A DNA stretch of 20,000 nt from the IMG/VR virus record IMGVR_UViG_3300035698_026801; one strand, written 5' to 3'. The translations under genes were made by a program, and so were the position numbers. Shown piece after piece: positions 169 through 20,000 of the stretch (the stretch's first letter is position 1; every line of letters begins with the position of its first letter). The DNA is from an uncultured virus (IMG/VR IMGVR_UViG_3300035698_026801) (lineage: Duplodnaviria; Heunggongvirae; Uroviricota; Caudoviricetes). Under the pieces are notes generated by a model, which was not told the origin of the DNA, ran no database searches, and was given only the letters and a program-made list of their open reading frames with translations.

Positions 169-3100
169 ATGAAAGTAAGATTATTATTATTTTTAGTAGG
201 TATGATATTAGTTTCAACATTTGGTTCTGCACTTATTTTTGAAGCAGAGGGCTCTGTAAACACCATACCCACAGTTTCTACAGTAGTTTTATCCCCTACG
301 ATTTTATACGCCGACACGAATTTAATTTGTAATACAACAATTACAGATCCAGAAGATTCTACTTTTACGGCATATTTTACTTGGTACAAAAATGATGCGA
401 ATATACTTTCTGGTTCAACTGGCAGCGTTGCAAATAACACAAATACAGAAATAGCGACTTTATTAAGTGGCAATTTTTCTAAGGGCGATGTTTTAAAATG
501 TGAGATTGAAGCGTATGATACAAAAGATAATTCCACGGCGGTTAATTCATCCATAAAAACAATTACGAATTCGATTCCAACTCTAGGTAATCCTACTTTA
601 AATGATTATTCACCTTATACTTCAGATATATTAACTTGTACTCCTACAGGGTATTCTGATGCTGATTCAGATGGTGCCACGTATTATTACAAATGGTATG
701 ATGATGGCGCTATTGTTGCAGATCAAGTTTCTTCCACACTAGATTTGGGCGTTGCAAATTTAGATAAAATAAACGAAATTAAGTGTTCTACAGTTGCTTC
801 AGATGGTACTAGTAATGCAACTGCATGGACTAATTCCAGTGTCGCAACTATTCAAAATTCTATCCCTACTATTGGAACACCAATTTTAAATGATCTTTCG
901 CCTTATACTTCAGATACTTTAACTTGTACTCCTCAAGATTATTCAGATTTAGATGGAGATGGGGCCACTTCTTATTATAAATGGTATGATTCTGATGTAA
1001 TAGTTGCTGGTCAAACTACGAGTACATTAGATTTAAGTGTGGCAGGATTGAATAAAGATGATACAATTATTTGCTCTGTGATTGCAGATGATGGAACCTC
1101 AAATGCCACAGCATGGAAGAATACATCAACAGCTACTATTTTAAATTCTATCCCAACAATTGGAACTCCAACATTAAGTACTTTAATTCCAAATACAGAT
1201 AGTGTTTTAACGTGTACACCACACGATTATGCTGATTTAGATGGAGATGGTGCTACTCAGTATTATAAATGGTATAATACAGGAGTTATAGTTGCAAGTC
1301 AAACAACTAACACTCTAGATTTAAGTGTTTCTGGATTGGACAAAGGGGATACAATTATTTGTTCTAATATTGCAGACGATGGAACTTCAAATGCAACAGC
1401 ATGGATAAACTCATCAGAAGCAACTATTGATAATTCTTATCCAATAATTTCAAATGTAAAATTAATAATAACAGAATTTGGTGGAACTCAAGAAATTACA
1501 TTAAATATAACCGCATCGGATCCAGACGGTATTGCGGATTTGGCTTACGGTAATTTTTCTACGGTTTATGGAGTTTTTTCAGCAGGAGTTTCTGAATTAG
1601 ATATCCCAAATGGTTTAGTTCAAGTACAAACAATTTGGATTAATGATTCATCTAATGGGCAAGATTCATTTTTATTAAATTTTACGCTTTTAGAAGGAGC
1701 ATTAACCAGTAATTCTTCTTACTCTCATACGTTAGCCTTACAAGGTATTGAACTTAATTCAACTTTGTATAATAACGGTTCAAGTTCTATTTCATATGAC
1801 ATAACAGCATACACTCCTCCCTCAGGAGTATTAGATGGCGGTGGTACGTTCACAGGGACTGCCACCGCATTATCTACGAATTATTTGTATAGTAATTGGC
1901 ATGGAGATTTTATCACTTTAGAAGATACAGCTCTTGAAGGTCAAACGGAAAATGCCACAAAATTACACACAGAATCTACACAATATCTTTTGAATACCAC
2001 ACATTTAAATGCTACCAACTCTCAGGCGTTTACATTTGTTGGTGTTGATATTTCTGCTGAATGTACCGAGACCATTTCTGCGGATGTAGGCGCTGGAGCC
2101 ACTAAAATTACAACCACATGTGACACAACAGAGTACACGGTGGATACAATTGACACATATACCTCGGCTGAGTTGTTAGATTCCGCCACAGAGTCAACAT
2201 TAGACACACAGTATATTTACAAGTATAGATGGATCAACAACACGGGAAGTATTGGTTTTACTAATGTGTCTATGGCAACTGCAACTATTTCAGGAACTTG
2301 TTTAAACTGTGAGGTACGTTACAATTCTTTAACTGATGGGCAAAATTCTCAACAATTTTATAACGCATCTTCTACTTGGATTCCATATACAGAAGGGACT
2401 TGGAAGCAAGATACAACAGAAATAACAGAAGCCAATGGTATTTCATATAATACAAAGAATTTGAGTGCTTATAATAACCACTCTAGTATTGATTTTACAG
2501 GCGTTGTTTTAAATTTAGCAAATAAAACTAGTTGGACGTGTGATCCAGTCATTACAGGTACTATTACGTCTACTGGTTGGTTAAATATTACTCAAAGCAA
2601 TAATTGTTCAAAATCCAATGCTTTGACATTTGCTGAGACTTATCATGAATTACTCGATTCAGAAGGTATTATGAATGAATCAAATAGTTTGAATATTACT
2701 GTGACAATAAATAATACCGATGATGTAGCTTACACAAATGTTAAAGCGAATTTTACAACAACGTATCCAAATAATGATATTGTAAGGTATACAAATACTT
2801 CTCAGAATATCTACTCCAATTTGAACATATTGGCAAGCACCGAAACAAATCACTCATATACTGCAACTGGGATCGTAATAGATCAACTATCCGCTAATGA
2901 CCTTGGAGGGTGTGCTACAGGCTATGTTAATTACGGCGCTTATTGTCGAAAGGTAGTTGATACTTCTACTGGTGGAAAATTCTATTATTATGAATATTAT
3001 TTTAACGTAACGCATAACGTGACAAATAGTGTGGATTTAATTCATGAAATTGCTAAAACTAGTTTAACAGATTGGTCTGGAAGAAGCGGCGAAACCTATA

Positions 3101-3957
3101 ATGTAAATGGAAGTGCGATTGATATGTCCATTTCTGAAGATTTAGTTTCAGTTAATCTTACTATTGGAGATTCTCATTCAACATCTTCTTCATCTGAAGG
3201 AATTTGGTATTTATATTTAAATTATTTTAAATCAGGAACATCTCCTGGAGGTGGAGGAGGAAGTGGTAGCAGTACACCAACGGCACCAATAAATCTGACA
3301 ACACTTGGAGAGCCAGTAAAAGTCTTTGAGTTAGAAACAGATTCGGCATTAAATTTATCAGGATATCCTGGACAAACGATTGATTATAAACAATTTGTTA
3401 TTAAAAATTTATTAAGTGAAGAAATAAATGTTTCTTTAGTGCTTTTAGAAGGCCCCGCATGTGCTTGGATCACATTTACAATGGAAGAAGAAGGATTAAA
3501 ATCACTTGATGGATATATTATTTCTGCGCCAGGAGGAACAACTAGATCTGGCGTTTTATATGTAACTGAAAAAATAGAAATTCCAAAGAATGTTACGATT
3601 AAAGATACAAAAGGCTGTAGATTTTTAGTTTCTGCAGCTAACGGATATTCGGAAGAATTTGAATACCAAATTACAATTAAGGAAGGATTAGGTAGCGATA
3701 TTCAAGCCAGTTTTACATCATTTTTTATGAGAACTATAGATTTTGGTGATGGATTGTGCATCGGATCTTGGGGCGCAATGTTTGGTGAAGAAGAAGAATG
3801 TACTTTCAGATTATTTGAAGGTGTCAGATTTAAAGTTTGGCACATTTTCGCAAGTGGTTTGGGACTAATTTTCACCATAGTGTTATTTTGGTGGTTGATT
3901 AGATATGTTAAAGATAAAAAATCAGGGATTCCAGGTTGGATTAGTGGTTTGAAATAG
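169..3957 (+). CDS. Large membrane-anchored cell-surface (glyco)protein with tandem Ig-like repeats, 1262 aa
   Basis: N-terminal signal peptide (MKVRLLLFLVGMILVSTFGSA), tandem 96-aa beta-rich repeats, many N-x-S/T sequons, Gly/Ser linker (SPGGGGGSGSSTP), C-terminal TM helix plus basic tail (FASGLGLIFTIVLFWWLIRYVKDKK); GAGGGAG upstream. Confidence 0.9.
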   Translation: MKVRLLLFLVGMILVSTFGSALIFEAEGSVNTIPTVSTVVLSPTILYADTNLICNTTITDPEDSTFTAYFTWYKNDANILSGSTGSVANNTNTEIATLLSGNFSKGDVLKCEIEAYDTKDNSTAVNSSIKTITNSIPTLGNPTLNDYSPYTSDILTCTPTGYSDADSDGATYYYKWYDDGAIVADQVSSTLDLGVANLDKINEIKCSTVASDGTSNATAWTNSSVATIQNSIPTIGTPILNDLSPYTSDTLTCTPQDYSDLDGDGATSYYKWYDSDVIVAGQTTSTLDLSVAGLNKDDTIICSVIADDGTSNATAWKNTSTATILNSIPTIGTPTLSTLIPNTDSVLTCTPHDYADLDGDGATQYYKWYNTGVIVASQTTNTLDLSVSGLDKGDTIICSNIADDGTSNATAWINSSEATIDNSYPIISNVKLIITEFGGTQEITLNITASDPDGIADLAYGNFSTVYGVFSAGVSELDIPNGLVQVQTIWINDSSNGQDSFLLNFTLLEGALTSNSSYSHTLALQGIELNSTLYNNGSSSISYDITAYTPPSGVLDGGGTFTGTATALSTNYLYSNWHGDFITLEDTALEGQTENATKLHTESTQYLLNTTHLNATNSQAFTFVGVDISAECTETISADVGAGATKITTTCDTTEYTVDTIDTYTSAELLDSATESTLDTQYIYKYRWINNTGSIGFTNVSMATATISGTCLNCEVRYNSLTDGQNSQQFYNASSTWIPYTEGTWKQDTTEITEANGISYNTKNLSAYNNHSSIDFTGVVLNLANKTSWTCDPVITGTITSTGWLNITQSNNCSKSNALTFAETYHELLDSEGIMNESNSLNITVTINNTDDVAYTNVKANFTTTYPNNDIVRYTNTSQNIYSNLNILASTETNHSYTATGIVIDQLSANDLGGCATGYVNYGAYCRKVVDTSTGGKFYYYEYYFNVTHNVTNSVDLIHEIAKTSLTDWSGRSGETYNVNGSAIDMSISEDLVSVNLTIGDSHSTSSSSEGIWYLYLNYFKSGTSPGGGGGSGSSTPTAPINLTTLGEPVKVFELETDSALNLSGYPGQTIDYKQFVIKNLLSEEINVSLVLLEGPACAWITFTMEEEGLKSLDGYIISAPGGTTRSGVLYVTEKIEIPKNVTIKDTKGCRFLVSAANGYSEEFEYQITIKEGLGSDIQASFTSFFMRTIDFGDGLCIGSWGAMFGEEEECTFRLFEGVRFKVWHIFASGLGLIFTIVLFWWLIRYVKDKKSGIPGWISGLK
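568..1431 (+). repeat. Three in-frame 288-bp (96-aa) tandem repeats; a more diverged copy at 259-567
   Basis: NSIPT starts at 568, 856 and 1144, NSYP at 1432 (exact 288-nt period); each unit has LTCTP, D-x-D-x-DG, YYKWY, TLDL, I-x-CS, DGTSNATAW. Confidence 0.95.
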
Positions 3958-3967
3958 AGGTAATTTT

Positions 3968-6900
3968 ATGGACTTTTTAAATATTGTTACAACACACAAA
4001 GGTAGAATTGTTAAGCTTAGTGTTGGTTTTATTTTTATCGTTGTAGCATTTTCAACTGTGTTTTTGTCAACAATTACTAGTTCTGCTAATGCAGATGAGC
4101 AAGAAGTACAAAGTATGATGATCAATAATGAGGTGTATCACGTCGAAGCATTTCAATCAGATAAAATCAATGTTAGTATCAATCAATCTCACATATTATT
4201 TCAAACGAAGGAATTTAATCATACAATAGAGTTTATCGATTTTTATGTTCCATCAGAGCTTCAAACATATTTAGCTTATGTGACTCCTTGTGATCCAAAT
4301 AATATGATTTGTCAGGGTGATTATTTTGATCCAATCTATGATCAAAATAGTTTGTTTCATATTTTGAATGATGGTTGGAACATGACTGAAGATCGACTTT
4401 ACACAAAAACAGATTATTTGTTTAATTCTACGGAAGCTTCTTCAACAGATGTTTCGTCTGCTACAGAGTATTGTTATTATATTGCAGGCGGCGATTGCAT
4501 TTCTACATATTATCCAGTCGGAAGTCTCATCAAATATAACGATCGATACTATCTAAATATTGTTGGAACTTATAATACATATTATCCTGATCAAACAACA
4601 ACAGTTTGGAATGAAATTCAAGCTGAAGCGTCTTCAGGTATACCGGTTGGTTTTGGTAATACAAGGGTCAATCAACTTTTAACAATAGACTATTCTTCGA
4701 ATAATATTGGATTGAAAGATATTTTGGACTCGGGTATTGTAATAGATGCAAGCAGACGAATTGATGTTTCTTTAGATGTACACACAAATCATTTAATTTT
4801 AAATTGGACTTTCATTTACAATGAAGAAATAACAGGAAGTTATCAAGATATTTATTCGGTGCCGATAGAAAAAGTAACATTTAATGCGAGTGTCGATCAA
4901 AAAGGTAGAAATCTTTATCAAAATATTACATATGATAATTTGTATGATGCTGCAAAAAGTGAAGTGTTGCATATTTTATATGAGAAAGATTTAACTTTTA
5001 ATACTGTGAATTTTAATGGTCTCGTTCAAACAAATTGTAGTGTTGATTATAATAGCTATACGAAACCGCATTTAATGACGGCCGGAATAAATTCTAATTA
5101 TATTTTAGATGATTTAACAAATTATAATGAACTATGTTACAATGTTACGTTTCCCGAAGACATGATTAATGTGATTGAAATGCAATTCATTACTCCAGAA
5201 TTATCCGATGGACCAATTTTAACTATCGTTCCGTATCATATAAATTCTTATATCATAGGATCAGGTGGTTCGTTGACAGTATCATCTTCTGTTGAATTAT
5301 GTGGAAATAATGATACATATTCTACAGTGCACGTTACTTCTGGTGGAATATTAAGTATTTGTGAATATAATGGCACCGCTGGTACAGGATATTTAAATTT
5401 GACGCTAGGTCTTACGGGTAATTTTACAGTTGATGTAGGGGGTCTTGTCGATGCCACTGAGAAAGGATATTATTTAATAGCTTCTAAGTACTCACGAAAA
5501 GATGGCTTGGGTCCTGGCGGTGGATTAATGAGTGAAAGTGCGAGTCATGGTGCTGGCGGTGGCGGAGGACATGGTGGTGCTGGTGGTAAAGGTGGCGGCG
5601 GGAGTGGGTATCCTACAGCTGGTGGAGATGGAGGCCCGACATATGGTTCTTTATCTAATATTTCTACAATTGGGAATGTAACTGTTGCAGGAGATATGAA
5701 TATTGGTTCAGAAGGTGGTAGTGATAGTGGCCCAGATAGAAAGGCTGGTGAAGGCGGAGGCTTGATATATATTAATGCGCGTAATGGTATAATTAATATA
5801 CAAGGTAATATGAGTGCGAATGGTGGAACTGGTCATTATGGGGGAACTGGTTATGGTGGTCAAGGCGGTGGTTCTGGTGGTGAAATAATTCTCGTTGGTC
5901 GTATTATGAATATATCTACCGGAACTTTTGAATCGTTTGGGGGTTATGGTGGCAATGGTTACCAGACTTCTGAGGGGGATGGTGGTGGAGGTGGAGGTGG
6001 AAAAATAAGATTTTTTTATATTACTATGATAAATGCTAGTACAAGTCTTAATATTTCTGGTGGTGGAACTCGTGGTTTGTGGGATGCACAACCAGGAGAA
6101 AATGGGGTTATTTATTATGAACAAAGTAAGACTCTATTTTCAGGACCAGAAATTTTTTCAGTTCAAATTGAACCGACAATAGCCGTAAGTACTAATAATC
6201 TATTAGCAAATGTTACATGTACTAGTTATAATGGAGATAATATGTCTGTATATTATATGTGGTATAATAATAAAGCTGTAAATAAAACGGGTATATACAA
6301 TGAATTAGTAAACGGAAGTAATACACAAATTGCAACTTTATTAAGTGGAAACACGTCTGTAAGTGAAGAATGGAAAATCGGAGTAATTTGTTCAGATGGA
6401 ACTATAAATTCTTCCCAAACTAATTCATCAATGGTTAAAATTATAGCATATCCTAAAATTGAAAATATAGCTTTTAATACTACAATATTAGATGTAAATG
6501 AGTCTGTTTTAATAAATATTACCGTAACAGATAAAGACGGAAATGGTACAGTAGAAATTGTAAATGCAACTTTTAAATATCCAAATTCTACACTGCTAAA
6601 TGAAAGTTTTGTACAGTATGTAATTTTACAAGACAATATTAATTCCGAAGATTTTGAAAATGGTATGATTTCTTTTATCGGAGAAACATTTCCAGGGGTG
6701 ATTTTAAGCACAGATGGACTACAAACTCTAGGTAGTTCCAGAGGTTATTATTGTAATAATTATATGGTTGGAACAGAAATAAAAGCAACAGAAACAGGAA
6801 AAATTAATGCAACTTATGCTTATCTTGTAGCTTCTGCTGAAAATACTTGTAAAATGGCAATATACGATTTGTCTAAAAATCTTTTAGGATCTAGTGACGC

Positions 6901-8104
6901 AACTACAATAAATATAGCTAGCAAATTTTTCGAATTTTCATTTTCAACACCGGTTTCGGTAGTTTCAGATACTAGCTATGATGTAGATGTGTGGTGTGAT
7001 GGATCTACAGCTCAAGATTATACTCGATATAATGCTGTAACAGGAAATTGGAATTCTAAATCTGCAACGTATGGAACCTGGCCAAATCCTGGGGGTTATA
7101 CAGAGTCAACAAATAGAAAACATTCTATGTATTTTACAGTAATCTCAGATAGAGTGGTAGATATTGAAAAAAATAAAACATATACAACTTATGATAATAT
7201 TAACGATTCTGTTACAAAAGATTTAACAAATATTAGCGTAACCATAGATATAGATGTTTACGATAATTCTGTCTCTTCTGGTATTGCTAATAATGCAGCA
7301 GATTTAGAATTAAATTTATACGATGGCTCTGATTGGATTAATTTGGGCGAATTTGATGTTTCAGGAACTGGGAATATTTCATTTTCAACACAAAATGCAG
7401 CACTATTAACTGCATGGGACACAATAGCGAATAGAGATTTAAGAATAAGAGGCGTGTGGTTTGATTCTAATTCAACAGATTATGATGAAATAAATTATTC
7501 AGGTGTGTGGGTTGAAATTGAACATGAAGAGATAACAGCAATTTGGCAACATACTTGGACAGATACAGTAAATTCTGGTGTTTATAATATTACTGATGTT
7601 TATGCGCAGGATAATGATGGTGGATTAAATCATACCACATTTTCAGGAAAGATTTTCACTGTTTCGGGCGGAGAAACAACAACATATTTCAATCTAACTC
7701 TTCCAGATGCTTCAGAAACAGAATATGGAAATTCAACACCAACTTCAGAATCAAATGGATCTCAAGATACAAAATATGTTAACTGGTCTGTTCAAGCCAC
7801 AAGTGAAACTCAAAACGAATCATGGGGGTTTTTCCGCTTTGAATGCACTGGAAGCGCCAATTGTCAATGGGATATGTTATTAAATTCGTCGTTGCCAGCA
7901 TCTATGAATATTTATTGTTCTAAAGATAATAGCCCATTTACTAATTTATATAATATAAATTCTACAAATAACGCCACAATTAATACCTCAATACCTAGTG
8001 GAGGCGGAATAGAAGAACTATGGTGCTGGACAAATTACACAAATGCGGTTGTAGCGGATACTGTACGATTGAAAATTACTCATTATAGTTCGGAAGGAAC
8101 GTAA
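3968..8104 (+). CDS. Large secreted adhesin-like protein, 1378 aa, with glycine-rich domain, Ig-like domains and C-terminal pilin-like domain
   Basis: N-terminal hydrophobic segment ending SSANA; Gly-rich region ~5500-6110 (GGGGGHGG, GGGSGG, GGGGGG motifs alternating with hydrophobic beta strands); Ig-like domain sharing IATLLSGN with the preceding gene; no C-terminal TM; RBS GAGGT. Confidence 0.88.
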   Translation: MDFLNIVTTHKGRIVKLSVGFIFIVVAFSTVFLSTITSSANADEQEVQSMMINNEVYHVEAFQSDKINVSINQSHILFQTKEFNHTIEFIDFYVPSELQTYLAYVTPCDPNNMICQGDYFDPIYDQNSLFHILNDGWNMTEDRLYTKTDYLFNSTEASSTDVSSATEYCYYIAGGDCISTYYPVGSLIKYNDRYYLNIVGTYNTYYPDQTTTVWNEIQAEASSGIPVGFGNTRVNQLLTIDYSSNNIGLKDILDSGIVIDASRRIDVSLDVHTNHLILNWTFIYNEEITGSYQDIYSVPIEKVTFNASVDQKGRNLYQNITYDNLYDAAKSEVLHILYEKDLTFNTVNFNGLVQTNCSVDYNSYTKPHLMTAGINSNYILDDLTNYNELCYNVTFPEDMINVIEMQFITPELSDGPILTIVPYHINSYIIGSGGSLTVSSSVELCGNNDTYSTVHVTSGGILSICEYNGTAGTGYLNLTLGLTGNFTVDVGGLVDATEKGYYLIASKYSRKDGLGPGGGLMSESASHGAGGGGGHGGAGGKGGGGSGYPTAGGDGGPTYGSLSNISTIGNVTVAGDMNIGSEGGSDSGPDRKAGEGGGLIYINARNGIINIQGNMSANGGTGHYGGTGYGGQGGGSGGEIILVGRIMNISTGTFESFGGYGGNGYQTSEGDGGGGGGGKIRFFYITMINASTSLNISGGGTRGLWDAQPGENGVIYYEQSKTLFSGPEIFSVQIEPTIAVSTNNLLANVTCTSYNGDNMSVYYMWYNNKAVNKTGIYNELVNGSNTQIATLLSGNTSVSEEWKIGVICSDGTINSSQTNSSMVKIIAYPKIENIAFNTTILDVNESVLINITVTDKDGNGTVEIVNATFKYPNSTLLNESFVQYVILQDNINSEDFENGMISFIGETFPGVILSTDGLQTLGSSRGYYCNNYMVGTEIKATETGKINATYAYLVASAENTCKMAIYDLSKNLLGSSDATTINIASKFFEFSFSTPVSVVSDTSYDVDVWCDGSTAQDYTRYNAVTGNWNSKSATYGTWPNPGGYTESTNRKHSMYFTVISDRVVDIEKNKTYTTYDNINDSVTKDLTNISVTIDIDVYDNSVSSGIANNAADLELNLYDGSDWINLGEFDVSGTGNISFSTQNAALLTAWDTIANRDLRIRGVWFDSNSTDYDEINYSGVWVEIEHEEITAIWQHTWTDTVNSGVYNITDVYAQDNDGGLNHTTFSGKIFTVSGGETTTYFNLTLPDASETEYGNSTPTSESNGSQDTKYVNWSVQATSETQNESWGFFRFECTGSANCQWDMLLNSSLPASMNIYCSKDNSPFTNLYNINSTNNATINTSIPSGGGIEELWCWTNYTNAVVADTVRLKITHYSSEGT

Positions 8105-8151
8105 CTTATATATATGATTCAAAACAAAATAAGAGTAAGTAAGGTGACTTA

Positions 8152-8697
8152 ATGGAGCCAAACACAGAAAAACAATCTAAACTAGCAAAAACTGCTTCTA
8201 AAAAGCAAGGTAAGAAAAAGTCTGTTGGAAAGATAGTTTTTGTAAGTATTATGGTTCTTTTAATCGCTGGCGCAACTGGAATGTATTTCTTTCAAGATGA
8301 GATTTTTGGAACGGAAGCAGCTACAGAAGTTAAGGTTAATCAAAAAGACACCCCCAAAATTGAATATTCAGGTCAAGTCTTATATGACAATCACATTGAT
8401 ACTGAAGACCATTTTGCAGTTTCTTTGAATCTTGCTTCAAGAAGTAGAATTCAAATGATTATGAATATGGAAGAACCAGTATTATTCTTTGTTTATGATC
8501 AATTAAAATATGAGGCGTATCTTGATGAAGATTTTTATAATCCAAAAGCAACTTCAGGATGGAGCACATATATAAATACATATAACCAAATATTTGATAT
8601 AAACGAGGGTGAAGGGGGAACTTATTGGATTATAATTGAACCTCAAAATACCAAAATAAAAGGAGACATCAAATTAATAAAATACGCAGACTTATGA
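8152..8697 (+). CDS. N-terminally anchored membrane protein with a beta-sandwich-like extracellular domain
   Basis: Lys-rich N-terminus, one TM (IVFVSIMVLLIAGATGMYFF), beta-rich soluble part; RBS AAGGTGA. Confidence 0.8.
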   Translation: MEPNTEKQSKLAKTASKKQGKKKSVGKIVFVSIMVLLIAGATGMYFFQDEIFGTEAATEVKVNQKDTPKIEYSGQVLYDNHIDTEDHFAVSLNLASRSRIQMIMNMEEPVLFFVYDQLKYEAYLDEDFYNPKATSGWSTYINTYNQIFDINEGEGGTYWIIIEPQNTKIKGDIKLIKYADL

Positions 8698-8709
8698 GGT
8701 TAAAAAAAA

Positions 8710-9261
8710 ATGAAACTAAAAATACCCTTAGCACTTTTCTTAAGTGCAGTATTGTTTGTGGGCGCCGGAGGTTTTGTAAGTGCAGCAACAGAAACAGTTA
8801 CTGTTGATCTTTTATTCAACGTTGCTGCAAATGATGCATTTACCGTTACGCTATATCTAGAAAGCGCAGATAATTCTCCTGGTGCTACGTCTAAAAACAT
8901 TGAATTTAATAGTACAACAGGGACTGATTTATGGATGAGTCCTTCTGTTGAGGGTGGAACAGGAACACAAGAAAGTTCACATCCGATTATTGAAATCGAT
9001 AATACAGGCAACACAAATTTACAGATAAATATCAGTATAGACTCTTCTGTTGGTGCATGTTTGGGATTAAGATATAATGCCACAGATTGGTGTGCAACAC
9101 CAGCAACATGTGCGACAGCATTAGATACAACAGAAATTGAATTAGATGATTCATTTACTCCGGTAGAAGGAGCAATTGGATTGTATTTGTACGGTAATTT
9201 TTCAAGTTGTGCTTCAACAGCAAGCGATACCGCAACAATGACAATTGAAGGAACATCTTAA
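8710..9261 (+). CDS. Small secreted protein, candidate major pilin/fibre subunit
   Basis: Signal peptide ending VSA/A; alternating beta strand right after cleavage (ATETVTVDLLFNV); I-x-NTGN-x-x-L-x-I-x-I motif; acidic, Thr/Ser rich, four Cys, no TM anchor; RBS GAGGT. CDS is solid, function is inference. Confidence 0.75.
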   Translation: MKLKIPLALFLSAVLFVGAGGFVSAATETVTVDLLFNVAANDAFTVTLYLESADNSPGATSKNIEFNSTTGTDLWMSPSVEGGTGTQESSHPIIEIDNTGNTNLQINISIDSSVGACLGLRYNATDWCATPATCATALDTTEIELDDSFTPVEGAIGLYLYGNFSSCASTASDTATMTIEGTS

Positions 9262-9288
9262 ACAATTTACTCAGAGGTAATCAGTAAA

Positions 9289-10317
9289 ATGAAAAAAGTA
9301 TTATGTATGACTTTAGTGTTACTTTTATCTTTTTTCAATACAGGATTAATAAATGCTCAGGAGGATTATGACTCCTCCCGACCAATTTATTTTGATTCGA
9401 TTGAAGATCAAAAGTACATATTCCACGAATTAGATCAATTATATCCTTATCCTTCTGATTTTGAAATGGTAAAGAATATGTATGTTAAGAAATTTATTCT
9501 GCCAACGTCAGCTAAAATAACCGAAGAATACACAATGCAACCAGAATGGAGCGAAGGTTGGTCTCGCGACGCATTAACTAGAATTAGAGAAAGATATTCA
9601 ACTTATATTGGTTCTGGAACTGGAGAAAACCCAAAAGGAAGTTTAAGACCTCAAGTATGGTCTACAGAAATATATCCTGCAGATTTCTATTGGGGTATTC
9701 AAAATCTTTCAGCTAATTTAGGTAGTGAAAGATGTATGGAATTTACAACTTGGGTTAAAAACACAGAAGGACAAGAAGATTTTTTGGGAACAAAATTAAA
9801 TATATATTATCCAGAAACTGTAGAAACCAGATATAAAGGTGATTTTTTAGAAAATAAAACGGTAATTCAAGATCCTGAGTTCGTACAAAAATATATTACT
9901 ATGAAAATTAAAAATAATGATCAATTTACACTTGCGCCAACTTTCCCATATTATCATGTACAAAATGAAGACATACAATATAAAAAAGAAATTATGATGG
10001 AAGTTTGTGTTAAAAAGAATATACCAGATGGTTTTTATATAATTGGGTTTAAATCAGAAAAACCATCTATAGATTATGCTAGAGTTCAATATGAAAAATA
10101 TAATTTACATTACACAGACCCAAACTTTGAATTCTATACAACCCCCGCAAAATATCACCTATTTGTTCAAATAGACAATACGGGAGGAGTTACCTCTTCT
10201 TTAAACCTTATTTGGTATATTATTGGTGGTTTTGTTGGCCTTGTCAGTATTGGAATAGGTATAAAATTCCTTCTCAGTAAAAAGGGAGGTATAAAAATAA
10301 AAAAAGGTAATAGGTAG
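9289..10317 (+). CDS. Secreted, C-terminally anchored membrane protein (hypothetical)
   Basis: Signal peptide ending LINA, C-terminal TM (LIWYIIGGFVGLVSIGIGIKFLL) and basic tail; RBS GAGGT. Confidence 0.85.
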   Translation: MKKVLCMTLVLLLSFFNTGLINAQEDYDSSRPIYFDSIEDQKYIFHELDQLYPYPSDFEMVKNMYVKKFILPTSAKITEEYTMQPEWSEGWSRDALTRIRERYSTYIGSGTGENPKGSLRPQVWSTEIYPADFYWGIQNLSANLGSERCMEFTTWVKNTEGQEDFLGTKLNIYYPETVETRYKGDFLENKTVIQDPEFVQKYITMKIKNNDQFTLAPTFPYYHVQNEDIQYKKEIMMEVCVKKNIPDGFYIIGFKSEKPSIDYARVQYEKYNLHYTDPNFEFYTTPAKYHLFVQIDNTGGVTSSLNLIWYIIGGFVGLVSIGIGIKFLLSKKGGIKIKKGNR

Positions 10318-10319
10318 AT

Positions 10320-10973
10320 ATGATTAAAATATTACCTATTTTACTATTTATTTTGTTTCTTCCGTCTATTTTTGGAGTTTCAGAAGCGGTTTATGGAACA
10401 ATTTATTTCACGCCTTATGCATCACACACGGATTATTATCTCATTGTAAAACCAAATATTGATCAGGGATTTGTGCCCAATACAGAAAATAATATTACAG
10501 TTCAGGTATGGAAACAACACATTTCTAGACCACCAGAATACCCGGGCGCTTATGTCACATATGAATACGCCGACGTTACAGGTAATTTAACGTTACCTAA
10601 CGGTACAATTATTGAAAACATTTCATTTAGTAACTCTAACGATGGAAATTATACGTATTCTTATGACTTTTTGAATGATGGAAAATATATTCTAACATTT
10701 AAAGCAGATAATGCGACCGTAGGTTATACCCAATCTAGAAGTTACATTTATGTTGATAAAATTAATGACGCATCTTATAATTTTGATATCGAAGAAGTTC
10801 CAATTAAAGAAGTAGATCTAAGAACTCAAACTTTGTTTCGCATTCCGTTATGGATCTGGATAGTGATTATTCTATTGGTCATTACATCACTAGGTTTTGC
10901 AGTTAAGAAATACAAAGGTAGGTTCAAGTTTATGGTATTCAAATGGTTTAGATTGAAGAAACAGAGCAACTAA
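10320..10973 (+). CDS. Single Ig-like-domain surface protein with C-terminal TM anchor
   Basis: Signal peptide, Ig-like pattern (LTLPNG...DGNYTYSY...DGKYILTFKA), TM (LWIWIVIILLVITSLGFAV) and basic tail. Confidence 0.85.
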   Translation: MIKILPILLFILFLPSIFGVSEAVYGTIYFTPYASHTDYYLIVKPNIDQGFVPNTENNITVQVWKQHISRPPEYPGAYVTYEYADVTGNLTLPNGTIIENISFSNSNDGNYTYSYDFLNDGKYILTFKADNATVGYTQSRSYIYVDKINDASYNFDIEEVPIKEVDLRTQTLFRIPLWIWIVIILLVITSLGFAVKKYKGRFKFMVFKWFRLKKQSN

Positions 10974-10998
10974 AGTTAAGATTTATGATAACTAAGTT

Positions 10999-11715
10999 TT
11001 AGCAACTTATAGGAAACTGATAATAGGTATTAGTTTTGCTCGCATTCCTTTCTTCCCAATATTGGTAAGCACATTGTAGCAATAATTTAACATAAAATCC
11101 AAACTCAATTAATATTACTGCCAAAATACAGGAATAAATAACAAAGTCCCATGAAAACATAGATAGGATCACATTTAATTCGGCAGTCCATTCTGAAAAG
11201 ACGTATAAACTGCATAACATCAAAATAAAAGTTAATATCCCATTGAAAATATTTCTCCATTTTAATCTTTTGAAAGGTCTAGCCCATAAAAAGACTATCG
11301 AAACATAAGTTAGCATAGCCAATACAAGAATTTCGTAAATCATGTAAGCCGTTTTGAATTTTAAATGGCCCATTTCGTGTAATATTACCTCCTTACTAGT
11401 TACAACATTACGGTTTAAATAGATTTTTGAAGGATCATCTGGATAAACGAACCCATTTACATAGTCACTATCAAATACAATTATTTCAACGTCGCCTTTT
11501 AAATCTACCTCTTGGGATAACGTTTTGGTATCTAATTTGTCACTCATGTTTATAGTTGAAAAATTAAATTCATCCCAATCTTCCGGGAACGCGTAGGAAT
11601 TTAATATTCTATTAACACTTGTAAGCATTCCAGGAGATAAATGTAAAATTATTGAAAATATAAAAATTACGCTCAATAATCTTAAAACTATTATTTTCTT
11701 GTTAAATTTTACCAT
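10999..11715 (-). CDS. Membrane-bound zinc metallopeptidase-like protein (HExxH)
   Basis: VNGFV...IYLN...VILHEMGH zincin signature, downstream E-x-x-A-E (SEWTAE), about four hydrophobic segments. Start placed at ATG 11715 behind GGAGAGG. Confidence 0.7.
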   Translation of the reverse strand: MVKFNKKIIVLRLLSVIFIFSIILHLSPGMLTSVNRILNSYAFPEDWDEFNFSTINMSDKLDTKTLSQEVDLKGDVEIIVFDSDYVNGFVYPDDPSKIYLNRNVVTSKEVILHEMGHLKFKTAYMIYEILVLAMLTYVSIVFLWARPFKRLKWRNIFNGILTFILMLCSLYVFSEWTAELNVILSMFSWDFVIYSCILAVILIEFGFYVKLLLQCAYQYWEERNASKTNTYYQFPISC

Positions 11716-12029
11716 TCTATTCCTCTCCACAATTTATATGTTACTGTAGTCATTTTTTCAACGTCTTTTTCAGTTGGATGTACCAAAATATTTTTTAAAG
11801 TTTCTTCTAAAGCCAAATATAGAAAAACTCTACCAATAGTTTCTGGTTTTAGTTTTTCTTGAATTGCAATCTTTATCTTTTCTTCCGCAATTTTGTAATA
11901 ATTTCGTATTACTCTTTCATGAAATTCTGAATTAAGATACAATTTCTGTTTAGATTTTTTAATGATTCCATAAAGCGTTAAATCATTTACTAGATATGTT
12001 TGAGTTATGGCATCTAATTCAAAACTCAT
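11709..12029 (-). CDS. Hypothetical protein
   Basis: Open frame overlapping both neighbours; ATG at 12029 preceded by GGTGA. Confidence 0.7.
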   Translation of the reverse strand: MSFELDAITQTYLVNDLTLYGIIKKSKQKLYLNSEFHERVIRNYYKIAEEKIKIAIQEKLKPETIGRVFLYLALEETLKNILVHPTEKDVEKMTTVTYKLWRGIEW

Positions 12030-12261
12030 TTCTTTCACCAACCAACCATAAAATTATCAAAGCTCCAACCACACTTATTACCAAAGCAAAGTATAACCAA
12101 AAATGATACACAATCTGACAGTTATACTGCGCCCAGCCGTTCTGTAGGATACAATAGTCCTTTGGAGCCATAGTTAACTCGTTCATCCACGCAAAAGAAA
12201 ACGTTACAACTACCTGAAGTAGTGCGAATGCTTTAATTATTAGTCTAATTGCTTTATTCAT
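12019..12261 (-). CDS. Small two-TM membrane protein
   Basis: Two hydrophobic segments flanking a loop with two Cys; ATG 12261 overlaps the end of the upstream gene. Confidence 0.7.
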   Translation of the reverse strand: MNKAIRLIIKAFALLQVVVTFSFAWMNELTMAPKDYCILQNGWAQYNCQIVYHFWLYFALVISVVGALIILWLVGERNEF

Positions 12262-12472
12262 TATATTCGTCCAATTTATCTGCAATAGCGCGTAATTCTG
12301 CAGAAGCTAGGCAATGTGTTCTATCTAAATGCATAGCATAACCAAAGTTTTTTACTAACTTTAACTTTACTGTTGTGTATTGTAACCAATTTTTTGAATC
12401 GGTTAATCTAACATATAGCTTATTCTTATATGTAGGAAGAACGTCTAATGTTTCTGCTTCTTTTACTGTCAT
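12254..12472 (-). CDS. Hypothetical protein (MTVKEAE..., 72 aa)
   Basis: ORF-track start at 12493 lies inside the tRNA; first ATG (12472) begins immediately after the tRNA discriminator base. C-terminal AELRAIADKLDE resembles small virus-type proteins. Confidence 0.65.
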   Translation of the reverse strand: MTVKEAETLDVLPTYKNKLYVRLTDSKNWLQYTTVKLKLVKNFGYAMHLDRTHCLASAELRAIADKLDEYNE

Positions 12473-12546
12473 TAGCAGCAAACGGAATTGCACCGCTCTC
12501 TCCAGGTTATGAGCCAGGTATGTTTTAACTACTACACTATGCTGCT
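12473..12546 (-). tRNA. tRNA with CAT anticodon (Met, initiator-like; non-canonical)
   Basis: Minus strand folds: acceptor AGCAGCA/TGCTGCT + A73; D stem GTGT/ACAT; anticodon arm CCTGG-CTCATAA-CCTGG (one U-U mismatch); T arm AGCGG-TGCAATT-CCGTT; no encoded CCA. Confidence 0.85.
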
Positions 12547-12549
12547 ATC

Positions 12550-13395
12550 CTATAACTTTAAGTCTGGACCATATTTGGATAATACTCCTTTTTTAGCTAG
12601 TTTCTGTGCTAAATGGATGTAGATCTCCGTGGTTTTTACGTTATCGTGTCCCAAATAGATTCTTAACTCTTCTTTAATGTCTGCATCACTGAATTTTCTT
12701 GCACTTAATCTTATTGCCCAATTTGTCGAAAAACTGTGTCTAAGAGTGTGAGGTGAGATCTCTTCACCAATTTCTTTTCCAAGCTTCTTAATAATTTGAT
12801 AAATTCTGCTATCTGAAACTTTGAAAATTAGTTCCTTCTCTTTTCCCTTTAGTTTTACCAATAGATCTTCTGAGGCAGAAAATTCGACCTTTCTGCTCGA
12901 AGTTTTTGAAATTCTTCCAGGAATCCAAATACTTTTCTTCTCAAAGTTAATCATGCCCCAGGTTAATTGAGCAAGTTCTCCTCTACGGCATGCCGTTTCA
13001 TAAGATAATATTATCAGAAGTTTGTCTCGATCCGTTTTCGCTAATCGATACATCATTTGTACTTGCTCAGGAGATACAATAGAAATGTCCCTCTTTCCGC
13101 CTTTTTTAACATTAAGGCGTTTTATTCGAGTAATTAACAAATCACTCTCGTTTATTAGGGTTATATCGCTAGTTTTAGTCTGGAGAAAGGTGATATACTT
13201 AATAAACGCAGACTGAACCGCGACAGTTGGAATTACCCCAAATTTCTGAACTATTTTTATATTTTGGGATAATCCATTCTCTAAATTAATGGGCTTTTTT
13301 AATCTCTGAATGTACCTCCTGTACATATCAGCCGTTTTAGGTCTAAGATTAATTCTAGCCCAAGTTTCAAATTCATCTAAATGTTGTTTAAACAT
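12550..13395 (-). CDS. Tyrosine recombinase/integrase (XerA/XerC-like)
   Basis: Full catalytic set: ETACRRGEL (R), SKT (K), PHTLRH (HxxR), LGH, TTEIY (Y); N-terminal PKTADMY SAM-like helix. Start at ATG 13395 behind AAGGAGGT. Confidence 0.93.
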   Translation of the reverse strand: MFKQHLDEFETWARINLRPKTADMYRRYIQRLKKPINLENGLSQNIKIVQKFGVIPTVAVQSAFIKYITFLQTKTSDITLINESDLLITRIKRLNVKKGGKRDISIVSPEQVQMMYRLAKTDRDKLLIILSYETACRRGELAQLTWGMINFEKKSIWIPGRISKTSSRKVEFSASEDLLVKLKGKEKELIFKVSDSRIYQIIKKLGKEIGEEISPHTLRHSFSTNWAIRLSARKFSDADIKEELRIYLGHDNVKTTEIYIHLAQKLAKKGVLSKYGPDLKL

Positions 13396-13408
13396 GAATT
13401 TTACCTCC

Positions 13409-14092
13409 TTACCCACTCTCAAAAGATGATTCTAAGTCTAGGTTATCTTCTGGGTGCAAATCATTAAGCACTTCATCATATCCATTCCCAAGTTTTTTTT
13501 CAAGTAATAACCAAAAAAATTGTTCTAATACTTTGCGCAAATAATAAAATGTAACCTTATCAAAATGCACAACCGGACGAAGCCCAAGTTCTTTTTGTAT
13601 TTGTTCTATATGAGTAAATAAATAATCAATATTTTTTTTAGAAAAACTAAATGAAAACATAATATCTTTTTCGTTTTCAAATCCCCCATTCAATTCGTGA
13701 ATCTGCAATACAGAGATTTCAGAAATCCCCAATATTTTAGAAATTTCAGTAATAGATTTATGTTGGACATCAAATCTTTGAATAATATTCTTGGCCTCAT
13801 CAAAATTAATCAACCCCTTATACAAATTACATTGGAGATTCCATTTAGCACAATCCTCCATTGCTAATTTTGATTTAATAATACATGGCACTTCTTCCAT
13901 TTTTAATTCACGCGCAACAATCAATCTATGATTACCGTCTATTACCACATTGTCTTCAGAAACAATTAAAGGCTCAAATATGCCTTCAAGTTTAATGGAG
14001 TGTTTTAATTCGTTAAATTTGTCTTCTGACATATAATTCGTATTATTACGAAATAGTTTCAAATTATCTGTTTGTTTATATTTTATTTTCAT
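13409..14092 (-). CDS. ParB/Sulfiredoxin N-terminal-domain protein with following HTH
   Basis: LKHSIKLEGIFEPLIV...VIDGNHRLIVARELKMEEVPCII is the ParB/Srx signature; SITEISKILGISEISV is HTH-like. Confidence 0.85.
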   Translation of the reverse strand: MKIKYKQTDNLKLFRNNTNYMSEDKFNELKHSIKLEGIFEPLIVSEDNVVIDGNHRLIVARELKMEEVPCIIKSKLAMEDCAKWNLQCNLYKGLINFDEAKNIIQRFDVQHKSITEISKILGISEISVLQIHELNGGFENEKDIMFSFSFSKKNIDYLFTHIEQIQKELGLRPVVHFDKVTFYYLRKVLEQFFWLLLEKKLGNGYDEVLNDLHPEDNLDLESSFESG

Positions 14093-14154
14093 TGTTCCTC
14101 TTTAATTCCTTCTTTAATCTTATTTTCAGTTTCTTTATCACAATTAAATGTCAT
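14089..14154 (-). CDS. Possible 21-aa micro-ORF (MTFNCDKETENKIKEGIKEEQ)
   Basis: Fills the gap, stop overlaps the ParB start (ATGA), purine-rich AAGGGG upstream. Confidence 0.35.
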   Translation of the reverse strand: MTFNCDKETENKIKEGIKEEQ

Positions 14155-14156
14155 TT

Positions 14157-14338
14157 CTACCCCTTCTTTTGATCATCTAACTTTTTATTTTGTTTTTTCT
14201 TGGGTTTAACAAATTCTAAAAAACACCATAAAAAAGCCACTCTAAGAACTTGCCAAACTTGTTTGACAGATATATAAGTCCTACTAAAGCACAAATACCA
14301 TAAATAATCCACACCCACGTTGGCCAATCAAGTATCAT
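14157..14338 (-). pseudogene. Small membrane protein MILDWPTWVW..., apparently frameshifted in a T6 run
   Basis: RBS GGAGGT; frame stops at 14216-14218 after 40 aa, but one extra T would continue FLEFVKPKKKQNKKLDDQKKG to TAG 14157-14159, matching the tail of the adjacent ORF. Confidence 0.55.
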
Positions 14339-14481
14339 ATTTTAACCTCCGTCTTTAATTTTTTATCTTGTTTTTTCTTAGGTTTAACAACTTCTAAAAA
14401 AATCATTAAAATAACCCATAATGCTGTTGCTAATCCAAAACCTAAAATCATTCCATTTGCAAAGCAACCGAAATAACTCAT
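14335..14481 (-). CDS. 48-aa single-TM protein (MSYFGCFANGMILGFGLATALWVILMIFLEVVKPKKKQDKKLKTEVKI)
   Basis: Hand-translated; ATGA overlaps at both ends; hydrophobic helix plus basic tail. Confidence 0.7.
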   Translation of the reverse strand: MSYFGCFANGMILGFGLATALWVILMIFLEVVKPKKKQDKKLKTEVKI

Positions 14482-14597
14482 TTTTTCTTAGCTCCGGATT
14501 TATGTGAGTTACAAAACTTAGCTGTTTCGTCGCACGCATCCTCAATAACTTTTTTTAAGCCTTCAAAAACATATGATTTTCTTTTTGGGTTTTCCAT
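14478..14597 (-). CDS. 39-aa hypothetical protein (MENPKRKSYVFEGLKKVIEDACDETAKFCNSHKSGAKKK)
   Basis: Hand-translated; AAGGAG upstream; stop overlaps next start (ATGA); first gene of the leftward run. Confidence 0.6.
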   Translation of the reverse strand: MENPKRKSYVFEGLKKVIEDACDETAKFCNSHKSGAKKK

Positions 14598-14980
14598 TTT
14601 TAATTATCGCGCTCCTTAATACTAATATATTAATGAATTTCAGTACTTAAATACTTTTATATTCTAAATACCATACTTTAATTAAGTTAATTAAACTATG
14701 TAAGATAAAATCAATAAATGAAACTTAATCGTTTTTGGGATAAAAATGTGACCCAAATACCCTATATTAACTGCCCTCGGTATGGGTTAAAAAATACACA
14801 GAAACGTATATATAGATCAAAAGATAATCTATAGGTATTACTATGTCTGGTACGCATGGTTTTTCATTTAGTTTTTCACTCGATAGGTGAAATTAAAGGG
14901 GTTATAATAACCCCTCCCCTTTTCTTTTTTCAAAATAACTAAAAAACGAAACGTATAAATACTAACTTAATTAAGTTATG
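14598..14980. promoter_or_regulatory. Divergent promoter/operator region
   Basis: Large non-coding gap between divergent gene runs; GAAACGTATATATA (~14801-14814) and GAAACGTATAAATA (14948-14961) fit BRE+TATA; AAAAGTATTTAAG on minus strand (~14646-14658); palindromes at 14677-14695 and 14963-14978. Confidence 0.65.
14897..14930 (+). terminator. Hairpin followed by pyrimidine/T tract
   Basis: AGGGGTTA-TAA-TAACCCCT (8-bp stem) followed by CCCCTTTTCTTTTTT. Confidence 0.5.
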
Positions 14981-15271
14981 TATAGAATGACTAAAAACGA
15001 GAAAACATCATTAAAGAAAAGTTCTTATAAAATAAAGTTGAATAAAGAAGTTCTAAAAATCATTGCTAAAAAGTCTCCAATATCTCAATGGGACCTTGCA
15101 ATTTTCTTGAAAGAACTTCCAGAATATAAGGATAAAGAAATCAAAACACTTCGCGCATATGTTTCGTCAAGTGCAGCAGATTTAGAAAAAATGAAACAAA
15201 TCACAAGAACTGATGATTTTACCGGGAAGGGATCCATTCCAAAGAAGATTTGCGAGGTTTTAAAAAAATGA
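14978..15271 (+). CDS. Putative winged-helix DNA-binding protein
   Basis: Basic ~95-aa protein, pattern VLKII..KSPISQWDLA...TLRAYVSSSAADLEKMKQITR plus wing; first gene behind a TATA box and palindrome (ATG 14987 is an alternative, leaderless start). Confidence 0.65.
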   Translation: MYRMTKNEKTSLKKSSYKIKLNKEVLKIIAKKSPISQWDLAIFLKELPEYKDKEIKTLRAYVSSSAADLEKMKQITRTDDFTGKGSIPKKICEVLKK

Positions 15272-15681
15272 TATTACAAAATTTTAATCAATTACTTGAA
15301 TCTTTAAATCACAATAATTTAGACGAATTGTGTGAAGTATTCAAAACAATGACGGGGGACGCTAAAATCGTTTTTCCGAATAAAGGCGCAATTATACCAC
15401 AAAAAGACAAGAATGGAAACCTTGTTTTAGACAAAAACAGAAACATTATTTTAAAATTTGAATTAGAAATGGATTTTATAAGTGAGAAATTAAAACATCC
15501 TATGTCAGGATATAAAATTAATAATATCCTTCTTAAATCCGCAGAAGTTGCAGAAACAACCGTTAAACGCGGTAAAAAAGAAAACGCTCAATTCTTCACT
15601 AAAACACACACAAACTTGAACTATATCGGAAAATATGGCACATATTTGTTTGAATGTGAAGAAGAACACCTTAATAATTAA
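15268..15681 (+). CDS. Hypothetical protein
   Basis: ATG 15268 overlaps the upstream stop (ATGA) with GAGGT RBS. Confidence 0.75.
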   Translation: MILQNFNQLLESLNHNNLDELCEVFKTMTGDAKIVFPNKGAIIPQKDKNGNLVLDKNRNIILKFELEMDFISEKLKHPMSGYKINNILLKSAEVAETTVKRGKKENAQFFTKTHTNLNYIGKYGTYLFECEEEHLNN

Positions 15682-15694
15682 CAGGAGACTAAAA

Positions 15695-15820
15695 ATGAAT
15701 CCAAGACCGGATCTAGATACAAGAAAAACAGACGATATAGTTGTAAAACTAAATCCAATCAATGAGAACGAAGTAGAACTCGTTCTTCAAAATATTCCTA
15801 TGCAAAATCGAGATGAATAA
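15695..15820 (+). CDS. 41-aa hypothetical protein (MNPRPDLDTRK...)
   Basis: AGGAG RBS before ATG 15695; fills gap in operon. Confidence 0.55.
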   Translation: MNPRPDLDTRKTDDIVVKLNPINENEVELVLQNIPMQNRDE

Positions 15821-15823
15821 ATT

Positions 15824-16147
15824 ATGGAAAAAGCAATATCATTTATTTTTATTATAGCATATTGTATTGCACTTGGTTTTGTAATTTTTGCCGTTATAAA
15901 CCTTATTTTTACTACCAGCATAATTCCTGTAACACAATATCGGGAAGATCAAACGCTATATGGTAAAACAAATTTATTTGAGATAGTATTCAATAGAGAT
16001 TGCCTACGAGTTTTTGTGCCAAAAACATATAATTGGACAATATCAAAATACAATGAACCACTTTGGGTATCCGAAGTAGATTGTGCTGCAGGAACTAGAA
16101 TTGGCAAATCTAGTAGACCTTCAAAGAATTTGGGTGATAAAAGATGA
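15824..16147 (+). CDS. Single-TM membrane protein
   Basis: N-terminal hydrophobic helix; stop overlaps next start. Confidence 0.7.
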   Translation: MEKAISFIFIIAYCIALGFVIFAVINLIFTTSIIPVTQYREDQTLYGKTNLFEIVFNRDCLRVFVPKTYNWTISKYNEPLWVSEVDCAAGTRIGKSSRPSKNLGDKR

Positions 16148-19989: not shown

Positions 19990-20000
19990 ACAATGTTGAA

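Follow-up and report, generated by a model that had tools for sequence, protein, structure and literature searches.

Why should a secreted protein of 1378 amino acids (aa), with no hydrophobic anchor at its C-terminus, end in a domain that resembles a small secreted protein encoded two genes further on? The question is raised by a 20,000-nucleotide (nt) stretch of DNA, IMG/VR record IMGVR_UViG_3300035698_026801 (here called the window, meaning the whole of this stretch; G+C content about 33%), in which six genes lie head to tail on the plus strand between positions 169 and 10973, with gaps of 10, 47, 12, 27 and 2 nt. The answer put forward here is that the genes at 3968-10973 probably encode a surface structure secreted through Sec, a fibre or at the least a tether, that is held together by donor-strand complementation and has a polarity like that of chaperone-usher and Elr/WxL pili. 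An earlier sequence-only reading of this DNA had proposed an archaeal fimbrial system in which a tip adhesin and a major pilin share one domain. The open reading frames (ORFs), signal peptides and membrane topology were found as described there, and the interpretation as a whole was partly supported. The genes concerned, none of which had an above-threshold family in Pfam, NCBIfam or PHROG, are the following.

169 to 3957, plus strand: surface protein of 1262 aa that carries a signal peptide, three tandem repeats of 288 nt and, at the C-terminus, a transmembrane (TM) segment.
3968 to 8104, plus strand: 1378-aa candidate tip adhesin with a signal peptide and no C-terminal hydrophobic anchor.
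7682 to 8092, plus strand: pilin-like domain (residues 1239-1375 of the 1378-aa protein), matched by the profile of the small family.
8152 to 8697, plus strand: 181-aa putative accessory factor in which an N-terminal TM segment is combined with an extracellular beta domain (about 110 aa).
8710 to 9261, plus strand: 183-aa candidate shaft pilin with a signal peptide and no C-terminal hydrophobic anchor.
9289 to 10317, plus strand: 342-aa candidate chaperone or assembly factor with a signal peptide, a helical part, a beta sandwich and a C-terminal TM segment.
10320 to 10973, plus strand: 217-aa candidate base subunit or anchor with a signal peptide, an immunoglobulin (Ig)-like domain and a C-terminal TM segment.

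The similarity between the C-terminus of the 1378-aa protein and the 183-aa protein had been noticed by eye. A direct BLASTP comparison of the two returned the same register, with 25% identity over 114 aa and an E value of 0.12. A profile (A2) was made from an alignment of 76 small members of the family (about 180-200 aa) and included no long protein. When compared with 403 ORFs it matched residues 1239-1375 of the 1378-aa protein with an E value of 5.3e-13 (43.6 bits), over profile positions 41-184 of 186, so that the alignment drawn by eye is significant at the profile level. The match starts exactly where, in the small protein, the signal peptide and N-terminal strand end. By BLASTP, the C-terminus of the 1378-aa protein also aligned with the C-termini of 20 of the 23 long proteins of the family (E 2.7e-20 to 9e-4), the best of them at 40% identity (E 2.7e-20). 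Because of the profile match and these alignments, the domain shared by the two proteins is, by sequence comparison, taken as homology and not chance.

The pilin family comprises at least 150 representatives. A word-based search with the small protein gave four relatives, and an exhaustive profile search covering 1.84 billion protein representatives gave 150 at E <= 0.001. Most of these matches were 180-200 aa long, and about one in seven was a long protein that was matched in its last ~140 residues alone, with E values down to 2e-8. A word-based search with residues 1130-1378 of the giant protein gave no match among proteins of 757-2412 aa, which were found by the later profile search. The family had no match in Pfam, NCBIfam or PHROG, and is therefore annotated as 'hypothetical protein' wherever it is named.

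A census of 153 family proteins separated 130 of at most 260 aa from 23 of 290-3529 aa. The profile match began at position 22-42 in all 23 long proteins, and the domain ended no more than 14 residues from the C-terminus in 22 of them, the match in the remaining one being partial. The signal peptide and N-terminal strand were matched in 114 of the 118 full-length small proteins, which fit the profile partly by construction, as it was made from them. It is proposed that the C-terminal domain of the giant protein is an attachment module that can act as an acceptor only.

The body in front of this domain is variable. In the 1378-aa protein it contains a Gly-rich region (about residues 515-690, with a weak AgmC_N match), an Ig-like repeat (714-858) and a conserved module (about 1063-1235) that is followed by the pilin-like domain. 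Residues 1063-1372 aligned with P0127 (E 4e-36) and residues 1064-1274 with P0097 (E 1e-32). The net charges of the two giant proteins encoded in the window, of 1262 and 1378 aa, are -88 and -89.

In the 183-aa protein a Sec-type signal peptide (residues 1-25) is followed by an N-terminal strand at residues 26-38 (nt 8785-8823) and then by an Ig-like sandwich that spans residues 44-183; the protein has two conserved Cys residues and four N-x-S/T sequons. Its N-terminal strand is among the best-conserved segments of the family, with 2.05 bits per column compared to a mean of 1.69 for the mature protein. An AlphaFold2 model obtained with the A2 alignment (predicted local distance difference test, pLDDT, 91; predicted template modelling score, pTM, 0.78) placed eight strands within residues 44-182. 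Residues 26-43 of this monomer were unpaired according to DSSP, with a pLDDT of 79-92, and the N-terminal strand is thus not folded in cis in the model, in line with the free strand supposed by the sequence-only reading. As a separate observation, the mature pilin (8785-9258) is very acidic, with 21 D+E against 2 K+R.

Comparison of this model with known structures by Foldseek gave no match at E <= 0.001. The top rows were AbpA of archaeal bundling pili, Csu, CupE and CfaB (E about 0.01, probability 0.96-0.98), in agreement with the donor-strand pilins to which the protein had been likened. VIA-align was run against 48,161 representatives, a list that also includes generic Ig, PapD and MSP domains, and gave scores of 7.0 for TLP-1b, 6.9 for Csu, 6.6 for AbpA, 5.6 for TasA, 5.3 for cannulae, 5.2 for the thread and 5.1 for tafi. 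A second look with VIA, which was a re-scoring of Foldseek's own top 1000 (nearly all pilus subunits and TasA-like proteins), gave 7.3 for CsuA/B, with a root mean square deviation of 3.0 over 106 residues. These model comparisons suggest that the closest fold matches of the 183-aa protein are donor-strand pilins.

Scans of genomes and metagenome contigs yielded 15 loci. One of these (L002, from a Corynebacterium metagenome-assembled genome, MAG) had a 31-residue match (E 3e-4) and no profile match, and was discarded as chance. The upstream gene ended in a pilin-like domain in each of the nine loci having upstream sequence (the window, L001/L007, L004, L005, L006, L010, L011, L013 and L014). 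In the genome behind L001, this upstream giant is encoded by an open frame that runs to at least 5757 aa and whose contig abuts the pilin contig.

An independent sample of 301 genomes of 0.6-2 Mb was drawn from the phylum of the genome behind L001, and the pilin family was present in 12 of them. Exactly one full-length small protein was found in 11 of the 12, and the same 11 genomes each had one large domain-bearing protein (in one genome, G069, there were two C-terminal matches). In 10 of these 11 genomes the gene of the large protein lay upstream of the pilin gene and in the same orientation, in one case across a contig joint; in the other genome the two genes were divergent. As there are only one or two carriers of the domain per genome, a function as a generic sorting tag is argued against.

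Downstream of the pilin gene the order of genes is equally regular. In all ten fetched regions the gene directly on the 3' side encoded a homologue of the 342-aa protein (the pilin's most constant partner), and in nine of them the gene after that encoded a protein of 546-1434 aa with a signal peptide (the tenth region stops at a contig end). These longer proteins are the anchored proteins of the relatives and carry CARDB/DUF11-like Ig domains; the 217-aa protein of the window has its own homologue in L006_11635 (E 4e-12). Between the genes of the large protein and the pilin, homologues of the 181-aa protein are encoded in L001/L007, L004, L006, L030, L032 and L033; they are absent from L010, L011, L014 and others. 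The order of large protein, pilin, 342-aa protein and anchored protein bearing an N-terminal strand is kept across divergent lineages, so that the neighbourhood on which the sequence-only reading depended is a conserved one. The named relatives of the pilin family are MAGs of Candidatus Woesearchaeota and Candidatus Micrarchaeia, and on the basis of these two labelled records the family is regarded as DPANN-associated.

The 342-aa protein was modelled from 20 sequences (pLDDT 65.7, pTM 0.59), which gave helices at residues 38-107 and a sandwich at residues 126-296. In Foldseek this model matched subtilase Fn3-like domains (E 1e-5), FaeE (9e-4), CsuC (1e-3), PapD (1.4e-3), Caf1M and WxLIP (both 2e-3) and CfaA (2.4e-3), and the sandwich is PapD/ASH/WxLIP-like by fold. 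That the protein may be a membrane-anchored chaperone-like factor is, on the strength of this model, a lead and no more. In the ESM Atlas, where the models of the 342-aa and 181-aa proteins are of low confidence, no named family was found for either, and a GOLD/emp24-like fold was the sole lead for the 181-aa protein.

The 342-aa family also has a second, shorter paralogue of 225-243 aa, in which a signal peptide takes the place of the TM anchor, in L036 (11825-12502), L037 (11791-12510) and L038 (5442-6173). Its gene adjoins that of the large protein: in L036 and L037 it stands between this gene and the pilin gene, and in L038, where the large-protein gene is divergently placed, it comes immediately downstream of that gene.

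The anchored proteins at the position of the 217-aa protein provide a further link to the pilin, as their mature N-termini resemble the cognate pilin strand across 16 loci. Scores were calculated between the 12-mer of each pilin strand and residues 1-85 of the anchored protein encoded downstream. The sum of the cognate scores was 330, compared to 210 +/- 22 for permuted pairs, a value reached by none of 100,000 permutations; for 10 non-redundant loci it was 207 compared to 139 +/- 18 (p = 0.0004). This test superseded an earlier permutation of seven loci (p = 0.04), in whose matrix the N-terminal region of the L004 pilin scored 36 against the 217-aa protein of the window, tied second-highest. 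The cognate score was above the 95th percentile of 272 control N-termini in 12 of the 16 loci, and the best strand match fell at ORF residues 20-30, just past the hydrophobic signal segment, in 14. A strand-only hidden Markov model (HMM) of 17 columns, which is too short to decide, gave 6.7, 3.7 and 2.4 bits for the best downstream proteins, pilins aside.

These data also bear on the alternative that no strand is exchanged at all. In that case the shared domain would be a duplicated, self-sufficient Ig- or lectin-like module, and the 183-aa protein a monomeric paralogue with its N-terminal strand in cis and with unrelated neighbours. A monomer model that leaves residues 26-43 unpaired, a strand conserved above average, a gene order that recurs in divergent lineages and downstream N-termini that follow the cognate strand all speak against such a module, which is accordingly judged quite improbable.

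In L001 the protein at the anchor position (2465-4639) has 724 aa, with a signal peptide, a pilin-like N-terminal strand, a Cys-rich and Ig-like ectodomain and a TM segment. The TM segment is followed by a cytoplasmic P-loop ATPase of the HerA/FtsK type (DUF87, 2e-13), and such a fusion of a surface strand donor to an ATPase is unusual. Proteins of about 730 aa that are alike in length and N-terminus alone are encoded at the same position in L030 (6799-8994), L032 (7075-9267) and L033 (11964-14147). A gene for a MinD/ParA-type ATPase was confirmed by Pfam near the cluster in L001 (7253-7972) and L010 (3937-4713), and ORFs with the same N-terminal P-loop motif were recognized by eye, at varying positions and orientations, in L011, L014, L030-L033 and L036-L039; there was none within the window. 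The statement that no ATPase is in view thus holds for the window, but not for its relatives, which have an ATPase of the HerA/FtsK type fused to the anchor and a MinD-like ATPase nearby.

Taken as donor-strand complementation, the proposed pathway is as follows. The 183-aa protein would be the repeating subunit, with an Ig-like acceptor domain behind a conserved N-terminal donor strand, and would polymerise when this strand enters the preceding subunit. The 1378-aa protein would be the distal adhesin or cap, composed of a variable body and a terminal domain which lacks a donor strand and therefore could only accept the strand of the first pilin. At the other end, the pilin-like strand of the 217-aa protein would occupy the last pilin's groove, and its TM helix would tie the fibre to the membrane. 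The membrane-anchored 342-aa protein would hold or prime subunits at the membrane, and the 181-aa protein may be an optional accessory. The roles of tip adhesin, shaft subunit and membrane-anchored partners suggested by the sequence-only reading fit the data, and were sharpened by the PapD/WxLIP-like sandwich of the 342-aa protein and the pilin-like strand of the anchored protein. Direct support exists for the shared domain, the lack of the strand in the large proteins, the gene order, the pairing of one small with one large protein and the pilin-like and PapD-like folds; from these we infer the insertion of the strand in trans, the length of the polymer and the roles of chaperone and anchor.

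The same domain logic would also serve a short, non-polymeric tether, in which one or a few pilins link the C-terminal domain of the giant adhesin to the membrane-anchored strand donor and so display the adhesin on the surface. The presence of one pilin gene and one adhesin per genome (G069, with its two C-terminal matches, apart) is consistent with a tether, as is the length of the anchored protein of the relatives (546-1434 aa), which could itself be the stalk. In known systems (chaperone-usher; Elr), however, it is the subunit combining donor strand and acceptor domain that polymerises, and the best structural matches of the pilin are the major shaft subunits CsuA/B, CfaB and AbpA. A tether of this kind is therefore considered unlikely.

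Several observations weigh against a donor-strand fibre. The direct pairwise similarity of pilin and adhesin is weak (BLASTP E 0.12) and not significant alone. Only 4-5 residues separate the N-terminal strand of the pilin from the next strand, and therefore a cis hairpin is also possible. The model of the 342-aa protein is of moderate quality, given its pLDDT of 65.7 and its 20 sequences. The 217-aa protein of the window scored 9 against its own pilin strand, which equals the control mean, and received 0.3 bits from the strand-only HMM. Finally, the p-values of the mimicry test are optimistic, because the loci are partly kin.

The sequence-only reading had also suggested that the system may be carried on a mobile element, and the window does contain genes of that type beyond the cluster. 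Besides the six genes listed above, it includes the following features.

10999 to 11730, minus strand: 243-aa polytopic membrane protein with an HExxH motif, weakly M48/HtpX-like (Pfam 0.038, phrog_87 8e-4), convergent with the end of the cluster.
12472 to 14092, minus strand: tRNA-Met, a tyrosine integrase (PF00589 4e-20, phrog_1 7e-30) and ParB_N.
16747 to 17328, plus strand: 193-aa signal-peptidase-I-like membrane protein (TIGR02228 1.3e-6 and SipW 4e-4, both below cut-off).

Integrase and ParB_N thus lie beside tRNA-Met, 1.5 kb downstream of the cluster, and an integrase-like or P-loop gene is also found downstream in L004 and L012. These genes raise the possibility that the products of the cluster have a structural or host-recognition role in an integrated virus or plasmid. 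The tRNA-Met is 2 nt from the stop codon of the integrase, an overlapping ParB_N gene comes next, and past the ParB block there are small plus-strand ORFs followed by tRNA-Pro and tRNA-Glu; no att-like direct repeat of the tRNA genes occurs in the window. The family profile had no relative in 2.9 million viral contigs, the cluster proteins had no PHROG match and no BFVD fold match at E <= 0.001, and every one of them has a secretion signal or a TM anchor. The proteins of window positions 10999-18532 had no counterpart in loci L001-L015, and in L001 and L032 the cluster is at most about 10 kb from a ribosomal protein gene. These results make a viral origin of the cluster unlikely, and the reading as proteins of an integrated element is held to be very improbable. 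Carriage on a mobile element was likewise not borne out, as the integrase/ParB block has no counterpart beside the related clusters.

The signal-peptidase-I-like ORF at 16747-17328 belongs to this integrase-side block, 5.8 kb from the cluster, and has no homologue in L001-L015. A membrane protein encoded on the minus strand at 19459-19998 does have a homologue (L006 19283-20296, E 8e-18), about 9 kb downstream of the L006 cluster; this is a hint that the surroundings of the cluster are syntenic on the chromosome, and the integrase block may therefore be an insertion beside a chromosomal cluster. A 61-nt direct repeat (14178-14238 and 14356-14416; 84% identity, 178 nt apart) lies shortly past the start codon of the ParB-like gene, itself on the minus strand, and may be a site at which a mobile element is partitioned or replicated.

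At the other end of the window, the 1262-aa gene lies 10 nt upstream of the 1378-aa gene in the same orientation and is possibly part of the same operon. The pilin-like domain is absent from its product. Its three tandem 288-nt repeats (630-1465) are 68-77% identical and code for Ig-like modules, one of which also corresponds to residues 714-858 of the 1378-aa protein (E 4e-11). With respect to the origin of the DNA, three runs of salt lake metagenome DNA from three studies contain 0.48-0.51 of the sampled words of positions 7600-11000, the source sample possibly being one of them; no RNA run was among the sequencing runs listed.

DPANN archaea live attached to other cells by means that are largely obscure, and their genomes are full of giant surface proteins without a known display route. 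A wider reading of the cluster, which is possible but doubtful, is that it encodes the first archaeal pilus built through chaperone-aided donor-strand exchange, in which the membrane-anchored, PapD/WxLIP-like protein of the 342-aa type primes a new family of pilins, the giants (from 0.3 to more than 5.7 thousand residues) are interchangeable and attached by their acceptor-only C-terminal domain, and the whole serves DPANN episymbionts as an organelle for host attachment. Such a fibre would grow from its base and would be closed and anchored by the strand-donating membrane protein, and the fusion of the anchor to a HerA/FtsK-type ATPase in some lineages would hint at energy-coupled or regulated assembly. 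It would be a convergent counterpart of chaperone-usher, Elr and candidate phyla radiation (CPR) Pam pili. Gram-negative bacteria are known to use chaperone-guided donor-strand exchange and so, as of very recently, are Gram-positives. If the reading is true, this exchange would extend to a third envelope type, a single membrane without a wall, the C-terminal module of such giant proteins would be explained, and one giant adhesin mounted on a strand-exchange fibre would become a testable candidate for host contact.

Among known systems, the likeness to chaperone-usher pili lies in the giant adhesin, whose C-terminal pilin domain has no donor strand (all 23 long proteins; terminal in 22). Unlike the archaic Csu/CupE and the type 1 and P systems, the archaeal cluster has no outer membrane and no usher to work with, and its candidate chaperone is membrane-anchored and made up of a single sandwich and a helical part. 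No usher or PapD family of Pfam was found in 10 window and 23 neighbour proteins, and the PapD-like fold is that of the 342-aa sandwich alone. Fimbrial or pilin families of Pfam were also missing, at E <= 0.1 for the pilin of the window and at E <= 0.01 for the 76 family members.

The absence of a type IV prepilin motif, usher and sortase from the window, as stated by the sequence-only reading, was confirmed by Pfam and by the sequence itself. No Pfam family for the prepilin peptidase, PilB/ArlI ATPase or PilC platform of type IV pili and archaella was found in the window, and the hydrophobic core of the pilin signal peptide precedes a small-x-small cleavage site. A sortase family was likewise missing there, and both pilin and adhesin end without a hydrophobic tail.

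The closest parallel is the Elr/WxL pilus of Enterococcus faecalis, which has the same four-part logic as the proposed archaeal cluster: a modular adhesin with an invariant, acceptor-only C-terminus, a small N-strand pilin, a membrane-anchored chaperone and a TM base donor (10.64898/2026.10.17.759780). The same paper confines the Elr system to Bacillota (10.64898/2026.10.17.759780). In contrast, the cluster described here is archaeal, has no Pfam match to WxL, DUF916 or DUF3324, and involves neither a cell wall nor a step that uses sortase or LPxTG; its adhesins reach at least 5757 aa, and some of its anchors are fused to an ATPase of the HerA/FtsK type. The four-part precedents, Elr and tafi, are predicted or shown to assemble by donor strands. 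An analogous case from episymbiotic bacteria is that of the CPR Pam pili (PMC13278184).

TasA and tafi systems employ dedicated signal peptidases. Tafi and DUF1102-type clusters are found in Euryarchaeota. In the published AlphaFold model of tafi it is the tip protein that supplies its N-terminal strand to a partner (PMC11821415), a polarity opposite to that proposed for the archaeal cluster. Tafi clusters are defined by the signal peptidase TafD and by TafG (DUF5305), with Tat signals in haloarchaea (PMC11821415). The conserved cluster described here has neither TafD nor TafG, and its pilin signal peptide has no twin arginine; DUF1102 and DUF5305 gave no Pfam match in the window, the family members or the neighbour proteins, and a search of genomes for DUF1102 had no match in any of them, the controls included. 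There was also no Pfam match to TasA/camelysin (Peptidase_M73), and a profile search of the Protein Data Bank with the pilin family gave AbpX alone (E 2.9), so that no relationship by sequence to threads, bundling pili, cannulae or TasA-like fibres was seen.

Bundling pili and cannulae belong to the archaeal donor-strand filaments. Such filaments are established for threads (PMC9715654) and tafi (PMC11821415) as well. Threads (Saci_0406), bundling pili (AbpA), cannulae and TasA-like filaments are described as chaperone-free or of unexplained assembly, and no giant tip adhesins ending in a subunit domain feature in the description (PMC9715654). The literature searched yielded no description of the pilin family and, among papers that mention both DPANN and donor strands, no title on an archaeal donor-strand pilus, although subscription journals and preprints outside the search may contain a description. 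The term 'undescribed' used in the sequence-only reading is thus correct for the protein family but not for the kind of system, as archaeal donor-strand filaments and the Elr/WxL pilus have been published. New within this known kind of system are the protein family, its occurrence in DPANN-type archaea, giant modular adhesins joined through an acceptor-only C-terminal domain and, in an archaeon, a candidate membrane-bound PapD-like partner.

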